DNA of 64,000 nt from a candidate division FCPU426 bacterium (GCA_963796105.1 CAWCKJ010000010.1:39620-103619); one strand, 5' to 3'; counted from the first letter of the stretch, positions 5,767-16,129 are shown. Numbers and translations: made by a program. Notes: a model not told the origin generated them from the letters alone.

Positions 5767-7884
5767 ATGAGAAAAATTTTTGGATTGATGGCGGTACTCT
5801 TATTCCTTTCACCCGCGGTTTTCGCGGCGGTGGTGGAGGATTGGACCGGGGTGCAAGCGGCGAATACCGGCACCTATATGGACAGCAACGGCTCCAAGAT
5901 CGATTTTGCCGTGGACGCGGGGCCCAAGAGCGGGCAGAAGGCCCTGAAACTGACCTCCAATCTCATGCAGAGTGGCTATTGCGGCATCTGGCACAATTTC
6001 ATGGCGGACCTGTCAAAAGGGGCGAATTTGAAGTTCATGGCCAAGTCCACGCTACCGGGAGACATCCAAGTCGCTTTGAAGGACGCCTATAACGTTCAGT
6101 ACATCGCCAAGGCGCAGGTCAGCACGGATTGGGCGGAAATCTCCATCCCGCTGGCCAGTTTCCGCAAGGACCCCTATTACACCCCTCCTGACGCCATTAC
6201 GGGACATTTGATGGACCTTAGCAAAACTTCTGGGATGAATTTCGCCCCTCAAATGGCGGGGGCGGCGGTGCTTTTGTTCGGGCAGGTCGAGACGGACGGG
6301 ACGGCCGCGGCCGCCTCAAGCGCCCCAGCACCCGTGACCGTAACCAAGGATCTCGAGTTTGTCGTGATGCCGGACCAAGTGCTCGGGCCCATCAGCCCCT
6401 ATATCTACGGCCTGAACAGTCAGGATCCAACAGGCATGAACGCGACCGTCCGCAGGCTGGGCGGCAACCGCATGACTGGATACAACTGGACCAACAACTA
6501 CTCCAACGCCGGGACCGATTGGAAGAACTCCAGCGACGATTGGCTCTGCGTCTCTCCGGTTAAATACGCCGATTGCGACCAGCCTGGCGCTCTTTACCGG
6601 CATTTCGTGGAGGACAACCAGAAAGCGGGGCTGGAATCGCTCGTCACGATCCAGATGGCGGGCTACGTGTCCGCCGATAAGAAGGGCGAGGTATTGAAGG
6701 AGGAGACGGCCCCGAGTCCCCGCTGGGCCAAATTGGAGTTCGCGAAAAAAGAAGACTACACCCTGACACCCAGTCCGGACAGCAAGGTCGTCTATGACGA
6801 CGAGTTTGTCAACTACCTGGTCCAGACCTTCAAGTCGGCCTCCAAGGGTGGCATCAAATTCTACGACCTCGACAACGAGCCCGCCCTTTGGTGCGGCAAG
6901 CACCTCCGCATCCACCCGGACAAGCTCACCTATCCCGAGATCTTTGATAAGTCGGTCCAACTAGCCCATGCCATCCTCAAGGTGGATCCTACAGCCATGA
7001 TCTTCGGGCCGGTGGCATATGGTTGGCAGGAGTTCCTCAGCCTCCAGGAATCGCCGGACTACGTGGAAATGAACAAGACCTATGGTTCCTACCTCGATTA
7101 CTACCTGGCCCAGTTCCAAGCGCAGGAAAAGAAGGACGGCCAAAGATTATTGCACGTGCTCGACCTCCATTGGTACCCAGAAGCCCAGGGCGGGGGAATG
7201 CGCATCACGGAGAATGATGTCACATCCGATTCCATCGATGCCAGGGTCCAAGCGCCCCGTAGTCTTTGGGACCCCGATTACATCGAGAAAAGCTGGATCA
7301 CCCAGTGGTCCACGCACAACAAGCCCATCCGCCTCATTCCCTGGGTCCAGGAGAAGATCGACAAAAATTATCCCGGGACGAAGCTTTCTTTCTCGGAGTA
7401 TGACTACGGGGGAGGAAACCATATCTCCGGCGGGATCGCCCAGGCGGACGTGCTGGGGATTTTTGGAAAAACAGGGGTTTATATGTCGAACTACTGGGGG
7501 GACCTGAATCCCTATAACAAGGCGGCTTTCAAGCTCTACCGCAATTACGACGGCAAAAACGCGGCCTTCGGCGGAACCTCCGTCTCAGCCACGGCAGGGG
7601 ATGTGGCTTTGGCCTCCATCTACGCCGCGACAGACCCCTCCCAGCCCGGTACCCTCTGGCTGGTGGTCCTGAACAAAAGCCAAAAGGACTCCATCCATGG
7701 AAAGTTCAAGTTCCAAGGAAAAGACGCCCACAAGAAATATGTCTGTTACGGGTTCGACGGCAAGTCATCGGAGGTCCAGAAGATCAAGGAAGGGGGGATC
7801 GACAAGGACCATTTTGAGTATTCCCTCGCACCCCTATCCGCCACCTTGTTCGTATGTAAGGGAGAGAATAAAACTCAAAAGTAG
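5767..7884 (+). CDS. secreted glycoside hydrolase, clan GH-A TIM-barrel (GH44-like), with N-terminal ~190-aa beta-rich domain
   Basis: Signal peptide. RLGGNRMTGYNWTNN and LDNEPALW (NEP catalytic acid/base motif of clan GH-A). 705 aa. The family call is from memory of motifs only. Confidence 0.5.
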   Translation: MRKIFGLMAVLLFLSPAVFAAVVEDWTGVQAANTGTYMDSNGSKIDFAVDAGPKSGQKALKLTSNLMQSGYCGIWHNFMADLSKGANLKFMAKSTLPGDIQVALKDAYNVQYIAKAQVSTDWAEISIPLASFRKDPYYTPPDAITGHLMDLSKTSGMNFAPQMAGAAVLLFGQVETDGTAAAASSAPAPVTVTKDLEFVVMPDQVLGPISPYIYGLNSQDPTGMNATVRRLGGNRMTGYNWTNNYSNAGTDWKNSSDDWLCVSPVKYADCDQPGALYRHFVEDNQKAGLESLVTIQMAGYVSADKKGEVLKEETAPSPRWAKLEFAKKEDYTLTPSPDSKVVYDDEFVNYLVQTFKSASKGGIKFYDLDNEPALWCGKHLRIHPDKLTYPEIFDKSVQLAHAILKVDPTAMIFGPVAYGWQEFLSLQESPDYVEMNKTYGSYLDYYLAQFQAQEKKDGQRLLHVLDLHWYPEAQGGGMRITENDVTSDSIDARVQAPRSLWDPDYIEKSWITQWSTHNKPIRLIPWVQEKIDKNYPGTKLSFSEYDYGGGNHISGGIAQADVLGIFGKTGVYMSNYWGDLNPYNKAAFKLYRNYDGKNAAFGGTSVSATAGDVALASIYAATDPSQPGTLWLVVLNKSQKDSIHGKFKFQGKDAHKKYVCYGFDGKSSEVQKIKEGGIDKDHFEYSLAPLSATLFVCKGENKTQK

Positions 7885-8031: not shown

Positions 8032-8235
8032 ATGGATTTAAAAGTCCTGCTGGAACCAAGTGAAGAAGGTGGTTATACGGCTCTTGTTCCCGCTCTTCCA
8101 GGATGTATTTCTGAGGGTAAAACTAAAAGAGAGGCACTGAAAAATATCCGGGAAGCCATTAGTTTGTATTTGGAGCCGGTGGATGATGATTTGTTGGCCA
8201 GTCCAAACGCAATAATTGAAAAAATCGCCGTTTGA
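8032..8235 (+). CDS. hicB: HicB-family antitoxin
   Basis: Small (67 aa) UPF0150/HicB-like sequence (YTALVPALPGCISEGKTKREALKNIREAI). Overlaps the downstream hicA start by 4 nt. Confidence 0.7.
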   Translation: MDLKVLLEPSEEGGYTALVPALPGCISEGKTKREALKNIREAISLYLEPVDDDLLASPNAIIEKIAV

Positions 8236-8462
8236 GCAAGGTTCCTAGTCTTCCTTATCATCGTATTGTTTCATCCCTCCAAAGATTGGGTTTTGTCGTG
8301 GTGCGTCAAAAGGGAAGCCATATCAGGCTGCAGAGATCAACCCCTGATGGGGAAGTCATCAAAATCACAGTGCCTGCCCACCAACCTGTTTTGAGATCTA
8401 CCTTGGCGCACATCCTAAAACAAGCGAAAGTTGGACTTGAGGATTTTTTAAACCACATTTAA
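8232..8462 (+). CDS. hicA: HicA-family mRNA interferase toxin
   Basis: YcfA/HicA-like fold signature (LGFVVVRQKGSHIRLQR). 76 aa. Confidence 0.75.
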   Translation: MSKVPSLPYHRIVSSLQRLGFVVVRQKGSHIRLQRSTPDGEVIKITVPAHQPVLRSTLAHILKQAKVGLEDFLNHI

Positions 8463-8520: not shown

Positions 8521-8635
8521 ATGGGAATCAAATTTTCCGGGGATATCAGGCCGGTGACCGATTTGAAGCGAAACACCCGCAGTCTATTAGACCAAATCCA
8601 TAGAACCTGCCGTCCGGTTGTGTTAAGGATGATAA
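8521..8635 (+). pseudogene. truncated Phd/YefM-type antitoxin N-terminal fragment
   Basis: N-terminus (VTDLKRNTRSLLDQIHRTCRPVVL) matches the Phd/YefM antitoxin N-terminal pattern. The reading frame runs into the duplication junction at 8636 and loses sense. Confidence 0.4.
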
Positions 8636-9083
8636 GATCGCCCAGGCGGACGTGCTGGGGATTTTTGGAAAAACAGGGGTTTATATGTCGAACTATTGGG
8701 GAGACCTGAACCCCTATAACAAGGCGGCTTTCAAGCTCTACCGCAATTACGACGGGAAAAACGCGACCATCGGCGGAACCTCCGTCTCAGCCACGGCCGG
8801 GGATGTGGCTTTGGCCTCCATCTACGCCGCGACAGACCCCTCCCAGCCAGACACCCTTTGGCTGGTGGTCCTGAACAAGAGCCAAAAGGACTCTATCCAC
8901 GGAAAGTTCAAGTTCCAAGGAAAAGACGCCTACAAGAAATATGTCTGTTACGGGTTCGACGGCAAATCACCGGAGGTCCAGAAGATCAAGGAAGGTGGGA
9001 TCGACAAGGACCATTTTGAGTATTCCCTCGCGCCCCTATCCGCCACCTTGTTTGTTTGTAAGGGAGAGAATAAACCTCAAAAG
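8636..9083 (+). pseudogene. duplicated 3' fragment (last ~147 codons) of the glycoside hydrolase gene
   Basis: About 97% nucleotide identity to 7434-7881. Predicted 145-aa ORF 8652-9089 is near-identical to the C-terminus of the 705-aa hydrolase. Confidence 0.75.
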
Positions 9084-9298
9084 AAATAAATCTATGCGGT
9101 GAGGTCTTAACCCAAACGGGGTGGGTTAACTTTGAAAAAGTTATTTGAAAAGTACTTTGCATTGCAAAGTAACTGTAGTTTCAATCAAAAACACAAATAA
9201 CCCGAGAATAAATATGTACTGTTATCCGTAAAAATCCGTATTATTCCCGGAATAAACCGAATCATCCAATCGCATCTTTTGTTATTATTGTTTAATCA

Positions 9299-10153
9299 AT
9301 GGAAAATAAATTCAAAACTTTTATCAACAAAAACTTTGGAATTGGTTTAGCCATTGTGATTGCCACTTCAATATTTTGGGGTCCTGTAAATTAAAATTTT
9401 TCTAAAAATTTAGAGGCAAACCAAAGTTCTCAAGATGAGTTTAGCAGGGGTTTTATATTTCGTTTCAAGAACGAACCTCTGGAAAAAATAAAACCTCTTT
9501 TCGCCCCTGATATTCGTAATCAATTCATCAACCTTTACCCCAAGATGACCGATATCTTGAATAAAATGGGTGAAATCCAATCCGTCCACTTGACCGAAAA
9601 CGAAGATGTCAAAGATAAGTCGGGCCGAGTTCTCGGAAAAGGCCTGAGATATTATGCGGATTTTAAAAAAGGCTCAATCATCATCCAAGTTGTAACAGCC
9701 CCTCATGGGGAAAGTTTTCAAGTCAATGGAATGTATTTCAATGGGGCTAAGTATAGATATGATGAAATATTTCCATTTCATTTCACGAACCGCAATTGGT
9801 TGCAATACGTTTTTCTTTTCTTTGCTTATGGTCTTTTTCTTTTTTGTGCGATCACATTCATTAAATGCCTGCAGAATGAGATGATCGGAGGATGGGAAAA
9901 AGCATTTTGGTTAGTAGCTATTTTATTTGGGTCCATCAATTTAAACATGTTTTGGCTACCGCCATCGCAAGGTTATTTTTCAGTGGGTGACAATACCGAC
10001 ACGGCATTAAATATCAAGTTTTTAATCTTATTCCCTTCGGGAATTGTAAAAGTTGGTCTTTATAACCCATGGAGGGTTTGGATTTCAATTCCTATTGGAT
10101 TAATGGCGTATAATTCGAAAAATATTTTCCGAAAAGAGCCGAGCAATAAATAG
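9299..10153 (+). pseudogene. hypothetical membrane protein gene interrupted by an in-frame TAA (31-aa N-terminal TM peptide + 202-aa ORF 9545-10153)
   Basis: ATG at 9299 opens a frame encoding a TM helix. TAA at 9392. The same frame then stays open for 50 sense codons in about 30% GC DNA before the annotated ATG at 9545. The 202-aa product has about 4 TM helices. No known family recognised. Confidence 0.4.
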
Positions 10154-10332
10154 AGACCCAGAATGAGCATTGGAAAAGGGGTCTGATCCCTTTATTGTGG
10201 CACCTAGTAATTTGCCAGCTCGTTAATCCTCATGCCCAGGCTGCAATAACAAATAGTTGTTTTCACGCAACCTTTTTGGGCTTGGCGCGTATTAACTTAT
10301 AGCAACAAAACAATAAAGGCGGATTCAACCAA

Positions 10333-11079
10333 ATGGAAAACATGAATTATTACCTATACGCGGCGGCGGTGATTTTGACCCTGCTTGAGATTTGTTTTCG
10401 CTGGGCCATTCCGGCGGTCCGGCGGAATCCATCCTTGGGGGCATGGGTGGAAACGGTGGATTCCCTTTGGGTGGCTCTTCTGCTGGCCCTGGCCCTCAAA
10501 GCCGTCCTACTCCAGCCTTTTGTGATACCTTCCGGCTCTATGGAAGACACCCTAAAGATTGGGGATTATATCCTGGTGAAAAAATACGAGTACGGCTACT
10601 CGATTTGGAACAGCACCAAAAGGTTCCTTGAATTCAAAAAGCCCCAAAGAGGCGATATCGTGGTTTTCGTCTTTCCCAAGGACCATACCAAAGATTTCGT
10701 CAAACGGTGCGTGGGGACACCGGGGGACATCCTGGCCTACAAGGACAAGGAGCTTTACGTGAACGGGGTGAAGCAAGTGGAGCCTTACGTACAGCATATC
10801 GATCCCCGGATCTTGAAAGCGGGGGACCCGCTCGAACCGGTTGGGGATGAGGAGTCGCCCACGGCGGATGGGCTCAGGAGCAGTCGGGATAATTTCGGGC
10901 CTGTCACGGTGGAAGCGGGCCATTATTTCATGATGGGGGATAACAGGGACAACAGCCTGGACTCCCGTTATTGGGGCCAATTGGATGAGAAACTCGTCAA
11001 AGGGAAAGCTTGGATGATCTACTGGCACTCGAAAAACTTCCATCCCGAATTCAGCCGCATGTTTAAAATAGTCCATTAA
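10333..11079 (+). CDS. lepB: signal peptidase I
   Basis: S26 motifs PSGSMEDTL (Ser nucleophile), VKRxxGxPGD and GDNRDNSxDSRYWG. Confidence 0.9.
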   Translation: MENMNYYLYAAAVILTLLEICFRWAIPAVRRNPSLGAWVETVDSLWVALLLALALKAVLLQPFVIPSGSMEDTLKIGDYILVKKYEYGYSIWNSTKRFLEFKKPQRGDIVVFVFPKDHTKDFVKRCVGTPGDILAYKDKELYVNGVKQVEPYVQHIDPRILKAGDPLEPVGDEESPTADGLRSSRDNFGPVTVEAGHYFMMGDNRDNSLDSRYWGQLDEKLVKGKAWMIYWHSKNFHPEFSRMFKIVH

Positions 11080-11118
11080 GATTCAACCGGGACCTTGCCC
11101 GGAGACCGGGTTTGACAG

Positions 11119-11697
11119 ATGGGTGAATCAAAAACCTCGAGCCAAGGGTCGTCCTTGGAAGACCAGGAAATTATCCGGAAAGTCAAAGCGGGGGACCGGG
11201 AGGCTTTTTCCGCGCTGGTTGAAAAATACCACCGTCCCCTTTTGAACTTCATTTACCACCTTCTCGGAAACCCATCCATGGTGGAGGATGTGGGGCAGGA
11301 GGTTTTCCTCAGCGCTTACCAATCCCTCGGCCGATTCGACCCCGAAAGGGGGACGCCCTTCTCGGCCTGGCTATTCACGATCGCCCGGAACAAGGTTTAC
11401 AGCGAGATCCGGAAGAAACGCCCTTTTTTGTCGTTGGAGGATTTTTTCCACCTGCCGGGGAGGGGAAATAATCCTGAGGAAAACCTTCTTGAGAAAGAGA
11501 GGGTGGAGGCCATCAGGGAGTGCCTGAATATCCTGCCTGAGAATCACCGGCGGGCGTTGATGAAACATTTAGAGGGATTCGCGCAGATTGAACAGGCCCG
11601 CAGGGACAAGATCCCGGCAGGCACGGTGAAAGCCCGGTTCTTTCGGACGAAACAAGTTCTCAGGCTGATACTGGAAAAACGATTCGGAGGTTTGTGA
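11119..11697 (+). CDS. ECF-type RNA polymerase sigma-70 factor
   Basis: Sigma-70 region 2 (FLSAYQSLGRFDP...FSAWLFTIARN) and region 4 HTH. 192 aa. Confidence 0.85.
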   Translation: MGESKTSSQGSSLEDQEIIRKVKAGDREAFSALVEKYHRPLLNFIYHLLGNPSMVEDVGQEVFLSAYQSLGRFDPERGTPFSAWLFTIARNKVYSEIRKKRPFLSLEDFFHLPGRGNNPEENLLEKERVEAIRECLNILPENHRRALMKHLEGFAQIEQARRDKIPAGTVKARFFRTKQVLRLILEKRFGGL

Positions 11698-11698
11698 C

Positions 11699-11872
11699 AT
11701 GGAAGAATTTAAGCCGTCGGAAGGTTTCGTAAGACTCGTCATGAGACGGATCGCCGAAACAGAGGAACAAGCTAAAAGGTGGGAATATAGTTTGCGCTAT
11801 AGGTTTATCCGCTTGGCCCTCGCTGGTTCCGCCTTGTTGGGATCTGTTCTCATGGCCAATCCTTGCCACTAA
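11699..11872 (+). CDS. putative small membrane-anchored anti-sigma factor (57 aa)
   Basis: Starts 1 nt after the sigma factor stop. Charged N-terminus followed by one TM helix (FIRLALAGSALLGSVLMA). Below the 60-aa ORF-track cutoff. Function inferred from position only. Confidence 0.3.
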   Translation: MEEFKPSEGFVRLVMRRIAETEEQAKRWEYSLRYRFIRLALAGSALLGSVLMANPCH

Positions 11873-11977
11873 TCACTGAGGCAAATAAATCGACTTACTT
11901 TCATTTCGGTAACCGAATTTTTTTCAAAAGACCCCCTTTCCCCCCATCCTCTTGGTTGTAATTCCAATCAAATATTT

Positions 11978-13633
11978 GTACTACCTGAATTTTGCACCGA
12001 GTTTACCGATTCCGTGGCCAGATCGGCCTGAATCGGGACCCGACAGTGGCCATTTTCATCAGAAGTGAACTTATGTGCAAAGAATTTTTTGCACCAAGCC
12101 ACTTCTAGGCCGCCCTGGGTCTTTCCAATCGTTTTCGATCAAGGTATTTGAGGAAACCCAATAGGCCCGCTGTCCTATCATCATGGATTGAATACCTCAC
12201 CACATCCCGATGGCCGTGATACTGGATTCGGGCGGCTACAAAGAGCATCTTCAAACGTGCGATCCGAAGGGTATGGTCCGGCATGGTGATCTGTTCCTTC
12301 TCCTGTGGCTTCTTTCCCGGTCGCTTTTCTTTTCCACAATGGCCCACCATTAGTTTCATCCACCTCCAGAGGTTGTAAGCCAGCATCACGATCTGGAAAA
12401 AAGCATGGTGGCTTTGGAAACTCTTAGAGGGAATTGCTAATAACCCCTCCCGTTGCGCCTCACCAATCAGGTTTTCCACATCCGCGCGCAGGTCGTATTC
12501 CTCAACCACCCGATGGGGTGCTCCCAGACAGTTGGTCGCGAAGATTCGGTAGACATATCCTTCCATTTCAGGAAGGCTCAATTGTTTCTCCCGCGCTTTT
12601 TCATCCAGCGTCCTCATCGCCACAAACCGGACTGGTTGTTGCCAGCCTATGGGTTGATGGACACATTCGTTGTATTCGTGTTCTCCATGGCGGTACCAAC
12701 CCTTTTTCGTGAAAGGCGGGTCATGCCGCTTGTTCCCGAAGATGAAAGAAAACCCTTCTTTTTCACAGGCTTTCACGCTTTCCCAGCCGATCATTTCACC
12801 GTCACCGCGCACCAGAATCGTCCGGACACAGGACGGCAAGAGTCGCCGGAATTGTCTAATTTGGCGGGCCACTTCCTCAGAACTAAGGGTGGTTCCGCGT
12901 CTTTGGGTTCCGCACAAATATTCCCGGGTTTCCTGGAGAAAACACAGAATGGGCCTCAGTCCCTTCTTGCCCCGGTGCTTGGGGTTGTATCCTTTTCGGC
13001 TTCCCTCGATATTTCCGTAGACCGTTGCGGTGGTGGTATCGATGTTGATCTCCACCTTCTTGGGGGCATATTTCACCTGTCCCCAAACCTTGGCCCGTAA
13101 CGCCCCACTCAGATTCAGCAACGATGCCGACTGCCCGATCCCCAGCGACCTCAGGTATCTCCAAAAAGTTGTCACTACCGGCAACAAGGGAACCCGCAGT
13201 AAACCGCACAGCATGACCTCACCCCGCAGGTAGGCAAAATGGCCAAGTCTTTGGAACCCGATGAAAAGAAGCATTAGGATGCCGCTTACCATCCGGTAGT
13301 GGCCCAAATTCGGAAGGCGTTTAGGTGCGGCATAGTGTTTTTTGAATTCCCGCTCAAAATCAAGAAGGTCGAACATCTTCGCCAATGCCAACAATCCGCC
13401 AAAAGCTGTTAGGCGGTCTTCGCAAATACCTACGGGAGTATTGGCCGTAATCTTGGGCGCGATTCTCCCGTTTCGATTGGCTTTTTTCTGGACTTGCGGG
13501 TTTGATTTCTGAGGCGTATCTTGACGTTTCACCATCTGGGGGACCCTCTTTTAGGATGAGTTGGCTTCGCAACCCTTATCCTATAATGGTTTCCTAGATG
13601 GTTTTTTTATTAGGCGCAAAATTCAGGTACTAG
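11978..13633 (-). mobile_element. IS1380-family-like insertion sequence (transposase CDS 12105-13535, minus strand)
   Basis: 476-aa DDE transposase with an IS1380-like N-terminus (RLTAFGGLLALAKMFDLLDF). Imperfect ~20-bp terminal inverted repeats: gtactacctgaattttgcacc at 11978-11998 and ggcgcaaaattcaggtactag at 13613-13633. Confidence 0.55.
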
Positions 13634-14828: not shown

Positions 14829-16129
14829 TGGTGTGCGCCCCAAACCTTGGACAGTTTTTACTCCAAGTTGAGAATAGGTTTTCCGGCGATTGGTTTGAGT
14901 GACTTTAAAGCCTCGAACTCCTCAGGCGGCATGTAGCCGATAGAAGAATGCAACCGTTTTTTGTTATACACCTCCTCGATGAAGTATGGAAGTCTTTGAA
15001 GCACTTCCTGATAAGTTTCGTAATTGAATAGATGCACCTCCTCATATTTCAAGGTTTTGAAAAAGGATTCCGCATTTGCATTGTCGTAAGGGTTGCCTGT
15101 CCTGGACATGCTGATCCTTAATCCTTTGGACTCAAGCAGGGCCACGTAATCCCAGCAGGCATATTGCACCCCTCTGTCTGAATGGTGGATGCATCCCGGA
15201 AGAGGATTCCTTTCCTCTAAAGCCATGCGTAAAGCCGAAAGCGACAACTCCCGATCCAGTCTCTTGGAAACCGCCCACCCGATCACCTTTCTGGAAAAAC
15301 GATCCAGAATGGCCGCCAGATAAACAAAGCAAGTGAGGATTCGGATATAGGTAATATCCGCCACCCACACTTGATTGACAGCAGTTTCTGCCACCCTTTC
15401 CAAGAGGTTGGGGAACACCGGCAGGTCGTGATTGGATTGGGTGGTTTGGATCTTGAACCTTTTCCCCCAAATAATAGGGTAAAGACCGTATTTCCTTACC
15501 ACCCGCCGAATCCGTTTGGCGTTAATCCTTAATCCCTCCCGTAAAAAGTGGTGGTAGAGCCTCCGATAGCCGTAGTAGGGGAAGGTCAATCTCACCTGCT
15601 CGATTCGGTTCTTTAAGTCCAAATCTCTTTGTTCCTGAATCTCCGGTTCACTTTTAAGTGCAGAATAATAGGTACTTCGAGGAAGCCCCATCATTTGGCA
15701 TCCTCTTGAAATTGAGCCAAATTCCTTGAGGTGATCACGGAGGTATCGAGCTTTCTCTGGTTTTCCGCGTATTTTTGGAATTTTTTTAAAAGGTCTATCG
15801 CCATGATCAATTCCCCAATCTTGGCTTTGAGTTTCTCATTCTCTTTTTCCAATATTTTTTCGTGAAGGGAAGGTTTTTCAACCAAGGTTCCTTGGCGATA
15901 TTTATCGCGCCAACGGGTTATAACGCTTGGATTGAGCTGGTATTGACGAGCAGCTTCATTGAGCGATAGGCCAGTTTCTACCTCGTGGACGACTTGTTCT
16001 TTGAAATCAATACTGAACTTCCGTCTTATTTTACCCATTTGGAAATGCTCCTTTGGGGGGTTACCCCTTGAGCCGTTTCCCTATTCTCTATTTTTTGCTT
16101 CAACTGTCCAACTTGTAGGGCGCGTTCCA
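14829..16129 (-). mobile_element. IS3-family insertion sequence (orfA 15691-16038, orfB/rve integrase 14858-15694, minus strand)
   Basis: OrfA is an HTH transposase. OrfB has the DDE integrase core. orfA stop and orfB start overlap as ATGA. ~45-bp imperfect terminal inverted repeats begin TGGTGTGCGCCCC (14829) and TGGAACGCGCCCT (reverse complement, ending 16129). 3-bp direct duplication GAT at 14826-14828 and 16130-16132. Confidence 0.85.

Follow-up and report, generated by a model that had tools for sequence, protein, structure and literature searches.

The described systems closest to the gene examined here have an NTF2-like domain, which its product may share. DUF3887 (PF13026; PDB 4hyz), TraM of pIP501 (4ec6), the VirB8-like proteins (7aed, 8rtd_Q) and the N-terminal domain of PBP2a/PBP5 (1mwt, 6mkg) have a fold, with helices lying against a curved antiparallel sheet, that resembles the one predicted for residues ~34-150 of the product of this gene, and in PBP2a/PBP5 and VirB8 the domain comes right after a membrane anchor, as it would in the protein considered here. 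The likeness stops there, however: these systems lack the C-terminal multi-pass membrane domain predicted for the present protein, and they show no significant sequence similarity to it. From a genetic standpoint, the closest known cases are the ordinary nonsense pseudogenes of bacterial accessory regions, which likewise consist of one premature stop in an otherwise intact frame, located in a plastic region, with the residual ORF mis-called as a shorter gene. We see no material difference between these and our locus, the only unusual point being that the disrupted family is undescribed.

The locus lies in an AT-rich patch of a stretch of 64,000 nucleotides from a candidate division FCPU426 bacterium, this whole stretch being referred to as the window. 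We propose that positions 9299-10153 hold one gene inactivated by a single premature TAA, probably through a recent nonsense mutation that made it a young and ordinary pseudogene. The parts of the gene and its spacers are the following:

9090..9298, + strand: AT-rich 5' intergenic spacer, bounded by the duplicated GH44 3' fragment on one side and by the gene on the other (from the sequence)
9299..9391, + strand: codons 1-31, short basic N-terminus and transmembrane helix 1, a predicted signal anchor (homology, AlphaFold2, hydropathy)
9392..9394, + strand: premature TAA, codon 32 (aligns with Phe in most of the closest homologues; same in two Logan assemblies)
9395..9544, + strand: codons 33-82, first helices of the predicted NTF2-like extracytoplasmic domain (homology, AlphaFold2)
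9545..10153, + strand: codons 83-284 and TAG, the 202-aa ORF P0001 (gene calling, AlphaFold2, hydropathy)
10154..10332, + strand: AT-rich 3' intergenic spacer that ends where lepB starts (GC back to ~0.50 from ~10320)

The ATG at 9299 opens a 31-codon ORF, MENKFKTFINKNFGIGLAIVIATSIFWGPVN, for which the TAA at 9392-9394 is the stop. After this TAA, 50 further sense codons (9395-9544) lead in the same frame to the ATG at 9545, and the frame then extends to the TAG at 10151-10153, so that the called 202-aa ORF (9545-10153) appears in the ORF listing in frame with the 31-codon one. No ATG, GTG or TTG is found in frame between the TAA and 9545, and the frame is closed on its 5' side by a TAA two codons before 9299. 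Over the 285 codons of 9299-10153, the gene frame contains 2 stops vs 11-24 in the other five frames, and the probability of 50 open codons is ~0.025 when computed from base composition and 0.027 from shuffles. The openness of the frame after the TAA thus exceeds chance, as the sequence-only reading had held, from coordinates for the ATG, the 31-aa peptide, the TAA, the 50 codons and the 202-aa ORF that are all correct. Codons 33-82 are now untranslated unless the stop is bypassed.

Upstream of the gene, the 5' intergenic region contains two hairpins, TTAACCCA..TGGGTTAA at ~9107-9129 and TACTTTGCA-TTG-CAAAGTA at 9153-9171, the latter coinciding with the only terminator-like site reported in 9090-9298. 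Promoter calling gave no sigma-70-like site on the + strand of this region. A Shine-Dalgarno-like motif, which is present in approximately half of the window ORFs, is absent before the ATG at 9299 and also before the ATG at 9545.

The connection between the pieces of this frame comes from the relatives of the gene. An exhaustive HMMER search of 1.84 billion cluster representatives returned 66 homologues at E<=0.001, 16 of them below 1e-10, and these homologues are single uninterrupted ORFs of ~265-300 aa whose span includes the 31-aa peptide, the 50 codons that follow its stop, and the 202-aa part. The top matches are P0002 (285 aa, 1.8e-92), P0003/P0080 (269/289 aa; P0003 4.9e-61), P0004 (266 aa), P0005 (282 aa) and P0006 (299 aa). 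P0002, the best of them, corresponds to HTA77101.1 ("MAG TPA: hypothetical protein VK791_08085 [bacterium]", 285 aa) and is 54-55% identical to the conceptual product, while P0080, a protein of 289 aa encoded in the candidate division FCPU426 MAG bog_1179 (contig PLFD01000038.1), is 40% identical to it. The homologues align from the third residue past the stop to the C-terminus (query residues 3-251 aligned with phmmer), and they have 20-60 extra N-terminal residues beyond the stretch that is aligned after the stop. The match of the conceptual 284-aa product with them extends from the first residues (MENKFK..IN..F...LA....FW.P) to the C-terminus. In particular, the 31-aa peptide MENKFKTFINKNFGIGLAIVIATSIFWGPVN aligns with the N-termini of P0080, MESKFKFSINTYFWKALAVIVVSCIYWNPIF, and of P0002, MKKNKLKDAINSNFGMALAILLSTLYFWNALL, and codons 1-31 are 45-48% identical to P0002 and 42% to P0080.

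Since the homologues are uninterrupted ORFs that match all three pieces, the alignments indicate that 9299-10153 is a single gene, of which the 31-aa peptide, the 50 codons and the 202-aa ORF are the pieces. At the position of the TAA, just past the N-terminal membrane helix, 4 of the 5 closest homologues have a Phe, for which the codon is TTT in both P0002 and P0080. The sequence-only reading had envisaged that homologues might consistently appear as two genes with a stop at the same place; instead, every aligned homologue has a sense codon at the codon-32 position, and none of those aligned is split. The intact single-ORF relatives that this reading proposed to look for are the 66 described above. 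The family-invariant residues W204, P257, P265 and G267, together with 9 near-invariant columns, are all kept in the window sequence. P0002 and P0080 share with the window gene the anchor, the predicted NTF2-like domain, the membrane domain and the invariant W/P/P/G, but their genes are uninterrupted whereas the window copy has its TAA at codon 32. It is a disrupted member of the family, in which the N-terminal anchor (9299-9391) is present and homologous but cut off from the rest by the TAA.

No Pfam or NCBIfam family was matched by the 284-aa product, which agrees with the earlier statement that neither part belonged to a recognised family. Among the six closest family members, none matched a PADLOC family and a single relative gave one weak PHROG match. 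The family is undescribed, without a Pfam or NCBIfam model, and this is the sole mildly new element of the locus. A word-indexed protein search with the 284-aa product returned only the 202-aa self match, and the same type of search with the family profile gave distant members only, so that P0002 was missed with single query and profile alike; an "orphan" verdict based on this search would have been wrong, as the exhaustive HMMER search found P0002. The scan of JGI metagenomes with a single protein query gave nothing and, with a 3-sequence alignment as query, only copies of P0080 and P0002, while the genome scan with the 3-sequence alignment gave one locus. We found no relatives on phage, plasmid or viral contigs.

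Within the P0080 cluster, P0081 and P0082 share a C-terminal frameshift (…GILKIILN…), and one of them also lacks its N-terminus. These variants probably reflect indel errors that long-read assembly introduced into an A/T run, rather than biological truncations. A recurrent truncation in this cluster was considered and discarded: the short members P0081-P0083 resemble contig-end or frameshift artefacts, and their C-terminal lesion lies elsewhere than the TAA site.

The architecture of the intact protein was approached with an AlphaFold2 model built on a 24-sequence alignment (mean pLDDT 87.7, pTM 0.80). The model contains a transmembrane helix at residues 2-27, then helices 34-39, 44-58, 61-67 and 70-89 packed on a four-stranded antiparallel sheet (93-150), followed by a long hydrophobic helix (167-192), a helix at 198-209, hydrophobic strands at 214-263 and a terminal helix at 266-278. 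Hydropathy peaks are located at residues 8-31, 166-192, 202-221 and 236-254. The intact protein is thereby predicted to be anchored in the membrane at its N-terminus, to carry an NTF2-like domain on the outer side of the cytoplasmic membrane and to end in a multi-pass membrane domain, and we read it as a putative envelope protein in which the NTF2-like domain would be tethered at both ends. The proposal that the read-through frame would encode one 284-aa protein with an N-terminal signal anchor is borne out by the full-length homologues, by the AlphaFold2 model and by hydropathy. The 202-aa part (9545-10153) carries what remains of the predicted NTF2-like domain, namely the beta-sheet (residues 93-150), followed by the C-terminal membrane domain.

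Comparisons of this model with known structures gave matches at the level of the domain. Foldseek against the PDB returned NTF2-like matches only (E 0.009-0.04, probability 0.97-1.00), with TM-scores of 0.64-0.66 when normalised to the target (4hyz, 4ec6) and <=0.28 when normalised to the query, and no whole-protein structural match. A profile search of PDB sequences gave weak matches to PBP5 and to designed NTF2 proteins (E 0.02-0.1). The DUF3887 Pfam model does not match the window protein, and one relative matches it at 7e-4. PLDc_N (PF13396), which is a small membrane domain, is a lead only: 5 of the 24 family members match it weakly (best E 0.002) over a K-W-L-W-I-x-F-I-L membrane segment, and the window protein gives no match to this model at E<=1. 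Some distant members of the family begin with a lipobox-like ...GC motif in place of the anchor helix.

Apart from its TAA, the gene shows no sign of decay. It deviates from the family at 1 of 22 conserved columns, like the intact members, and its identities to the outgroups are 0.40, 0.37 and 0.33 vs 0.38, 0.35 and 0.41 for P0002. The 50-codon stretch (9395-9544), which follows the stop directly, is 0.14-0.42 identical to the homologues, and the intact members are 0.18-0.35 identical to each other over the same columns. The identity of this stretch, although lower, is thus within the range of the family, as are the region-wise identities in general. Such preservation of everything but the stop would make the mutation recent relative to the divergence of the family.

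We thus favor the following scenario. Translation from the ATG at 9299 would end after a 31-residue hydrophobic peptide, and the 202-aa ORF that starts at the ATG at 9545 would simply be what the gene caller finds in the intact rest of the frame. Any product made from 9545 would begin only after the anchor and ~48 residues of the NTF2-like domain, so that it would presumably be misfolded or misplaced in the membrane, and non-functional. The gene was probably acquired laterally and would now be in the process of being lost. It can be held against an ordinary pseudogene that low-level read-through or reinitiation could still occur, and that zero secondary lesions would also be expected under continued selection on the frame.

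One alternative is a functional split gene, in which the 31-aa membrane peptide and the product from the ATG at 9545 would both be made and act apart or together, the stop being tolerated or selected. The frame is fully intact past the stop with every invariant residue kept, an ATG is available at 9545, and the 202-aa ORF is reported by gene callers in two assemblies. However, this ATG stands 150 nt past the stop and is devoid of a Shine-Dalgarno-like motif, and Met82 is located inside the predicted helix 70-89, so that the product would be left without the signal anchor and without ~48 of the ~117 residues of the NTF2-like domain. Moreover, the 50 untranslated codons would be free to decay, and yet they are conserved as in the intact members, which fits recency better than fission, and no homologue is split. 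We consider the split gene unlikely. We likewise grant little chance to a tolerated stop in general, whether because a two-piece protein works or because low-level bypass of the TAA yields a trickle of full-length protein, although it would, if true, explain the lack of any further lesion.

Programmed read-through, or another form of recoding that would give the full 284-aa protein at some level, is less probable again and can be regarded as very unlikely. The open and undecayed frame downstream of the TAA is what speaks for it. On the other side, TAA is neither the Sec (UGA) nor the Pyl (UAG) codon, it is the commonest stop of the window, where it ends 24 of the 48 large ORFs, and UAA is the least leaky stop in bacteria. 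The stop is also missing from all homologues. The RNA fold of the 120 nt around and after it is no better than that of shuffled sequences (z -1.48, 15 of 200 shuffles as good), which argues against a structured RNA downstream. Nowhere in the window does a match attain the gathering score of an Rfam family, and under permissive settings the sole match at E<=1 in 8900-10400 is CrcZ, at chance level (15.1 bits vs a gathering score of 95). The tRNAs found in the 64-kb window are tRNA-Leu(TAA) and tRNA-Met(CAT) only, with no suppressor tRNA. A reassignment of TAA was rejected, this codon being an ordinary stop in the window (24/48 ORFs).

A sequencing or assembly artefact, with a sense codon at 9392-9394 in the true genome, would be another explanation. 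A single-base error could make TAA from TTA, TAT, TAC, AAA, CAA, GAA or TCA, and A/T runs are abundant in the sequence around it. Nevertheless, the Logan assemblies ERR11523656 and ERR11523672, which come from different runs, are 100% identical to the window over 9002-12011 and 9002-10944, TAA included. As two independent, separately assembled runs carry the same TAA, it is no one-off base-calling error and is real in the sampled population. Furthermore, the change is a substitution and not a homopolymer indel, and the six intact 284-aa alleles that are one substitution away (Leu, Tyr, Lys, Gln, Glu, Ser) were all absent (0/6) from a collection of 15 billion proteins by exact look-up. We hold an artefact to be extremely unlikely. 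In this collection P0001 is the sole member of its cluster. All three sequence copies probably come from one study or population, so that the TAA may not be fixed. Both Logan contigs break at 9002, within a 451-bp repeat that is described below.

Finally, a leader peptide or regulatory upstream ORF for a downstream membrane-protein gene, as a short ORF preceding a longer one on the same strand might suggest, deserves the least credit, since the short ORF shows homology with the first 31 residues of the intact homologues and shares its reading frame with the rest, the homology to coding sequence extends over the 150-nt spacer as well, and no terminator/antiterminator-type structure was found.

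Hence, among the pseudogene, leader-peptide and recoding arrangements that the sequence-only reading had left side by side, the first is favored, the 31 aa corresponding to transmembrane helix 1 of the ancestral protein and the TAA being ordinary, unconserved and without a read-through signal. In practical terms, the "202-aa 4-TM protein" is very probably the C-terminal remainder of a gene of 284 codons that a nonsense mutation has interrupted; the proper annotation is that of a pseudogene, and it should be taken neither for a novel short protein nor for a recoding site. The disrupted gene exposes a family that is absent from the catalogues and could be entered in them, with 66 cluster representatives at E<=0.001 and a confidently predicted layout of anchor, NTF2-like ectodomain and membrane domain. 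We would describe it as a widespread, unnamed family of putative envelope proteins, in which an anchored NTF2-like domain is predicted to be fused to a multi-pass membrane domain.

A side observation concerns the immediate vicinity of the stop. The codon that precedes it (AAT, Asn) also replaces a conserved hydrophobic residue, and the two form a hexamer, AATTAA at 9389-9394, which is the reverse complement of TTAATT (Leu-Ile). One may speculate that a 6-bp inversion at 9389-9394 could have made both anomalies at once.

The origin of the gene can be considered through its composition. The GC content is 0.31-0.40 over 9000-10350 (300-nt windows) vs 0.50-0.60 on either side, and the GC3 of the gene is 0.37-0.39 vs 0.75 for GH44, 0.67 for lepB and 0.67 for the sigma factor. 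Amino-acid composition cannot account for a local GC3 contrast of this size, and in relatives the lepB region is at ~0.55 GC. The sequence-only reading had opposed an AT-rich island to flanks of ~55% GC and deduced a probable horizontal acquisition. The opposition holds locally and for 1-37 kb; however, the whole window is at 47.8% GC, and the part at 45-64 kb equals the island in AT-richness. The core genes at 45-64 kb (dnaJ, rsmE, aroE, type IV pilus genes, aroB) have an equally low GC3 of 0.30-0.45, and low GC is therefore nothing foreign in this genome. No repeat pair brackets 9090-10320, no integrase or mobility gene adjoins the island, and no tRNA lies nearby. Relatives with a 76% identical LepB miss the gene upstream of lepB, but GH44 is missing there too, synteny being broken at this place to the point that an empty site would not be recognisable. 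The lateral acquisition of the 1.2-kb patch is thus plausible on account of the large local GC3 contrast, against which stand the lack of flanking repeats and of an adjoining mobility gene, and the equally low GC of the core genes.

The closest clade of the family is AT-rich compared to its hosts, with a GC3 of 0.376 vs 0.48-0.58 for P0080 and of 0.49 vs 0.51-0.63 for P0002. This AT-richness in two other genomes could be a property of the clade and not the mark of a recent transfer. An intrinsically AT-rich family was rejected, as distant members in GC-rich hosts show host-like GC.

Along the window, the GC3 of the genes goes down in steps, from 0.60-0.75 (1-37 kb) to 0.47-0.56 (37.6-45 kb) and then 0.30-0.45 (45-62 kb), the low-GC part holding dnaJ, rsmE, aroE, pilB/pilT/pilC/pilM/secretin and aroB. 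A 13-kb independent Logan contig (L015) spans roughly 27-40 kb of the window, as judged by length and gene order, and because it covers the composition step at 37.4 kb, this step does not look like a misjoin.

The genomic contexts of the family members are unrelated: TetR-gene-PilZ-FGE sulfatase, pdxJ-gene-recX-alaS and, in the window, GH44 fragment-gene-lepB. No partner gene is common to the four genomic neighbourhoods of the family. The P0080 gene (L005 6001-6870, PLFD01000038.1) sits in a housekeeping neighbourhood, between pdxJ plus a small ORF and recX-alaS, and has a GC of 0.37 vs 0.49 for its flanks, the same contrast as in the window. The window gene is a stand-alone unit between AT-rich spacers, in an accessory and rearrangement-prone region.

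Several features of this region concern its plasticity. A direct repeat of 451 bp, ~95% identical, is found at 7434-7884 and 8636-9089. It corresponds to the 3' end of the GH44 gene (5767-7884), which is present a second time as a fragment of 145 codons, and the homology stops exactly at the two stop codons, TAG 7882-7884 and TAA 9087-9089. The 5% divergence of the copies suggests recombination with DNA of a related strain rather than a simple tandem duplication. The two copies are separated by hicB (8032-8235), hicA (8232-8462) and a Phd/YefM antitoxin in truncated form. This truncated antitoxin is a 62-codon ORF (8521-8709), whose first ~35 residues match the Phd/YefM antitoxin N-terminus (E 0.0016) and which enters the GH44 fragment after them in another frame; it is the junction of an illegitimate recombination, and no partner toxin gene follows it. 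The transposase genes nearest to the island, beyond lepB and the sigma factor, are at 12105-13535 (- strand; DDE_Tnp_1_4 / DDE_Tnp_1) and 14858-15694 (- strand; IS3-type rve integrase with HTH_21). The toxin-antitoxin genes, the 451-bp duplication and the IS elements mark this region as plastic.

Downstream of the gene, lepB (Peptidase_S26) starts at 10333. The order lepB then ECF sigma factor (window 10333-11872) is kept in the relatives with a 76% identical LepB (L009 8001-9463 and L011 8001-9361), and what lies upstream of lepB is different in all three genomes. A 57-aa ORF after the sigma factor, possibly an anti-sigma factor, is also kept in L009.
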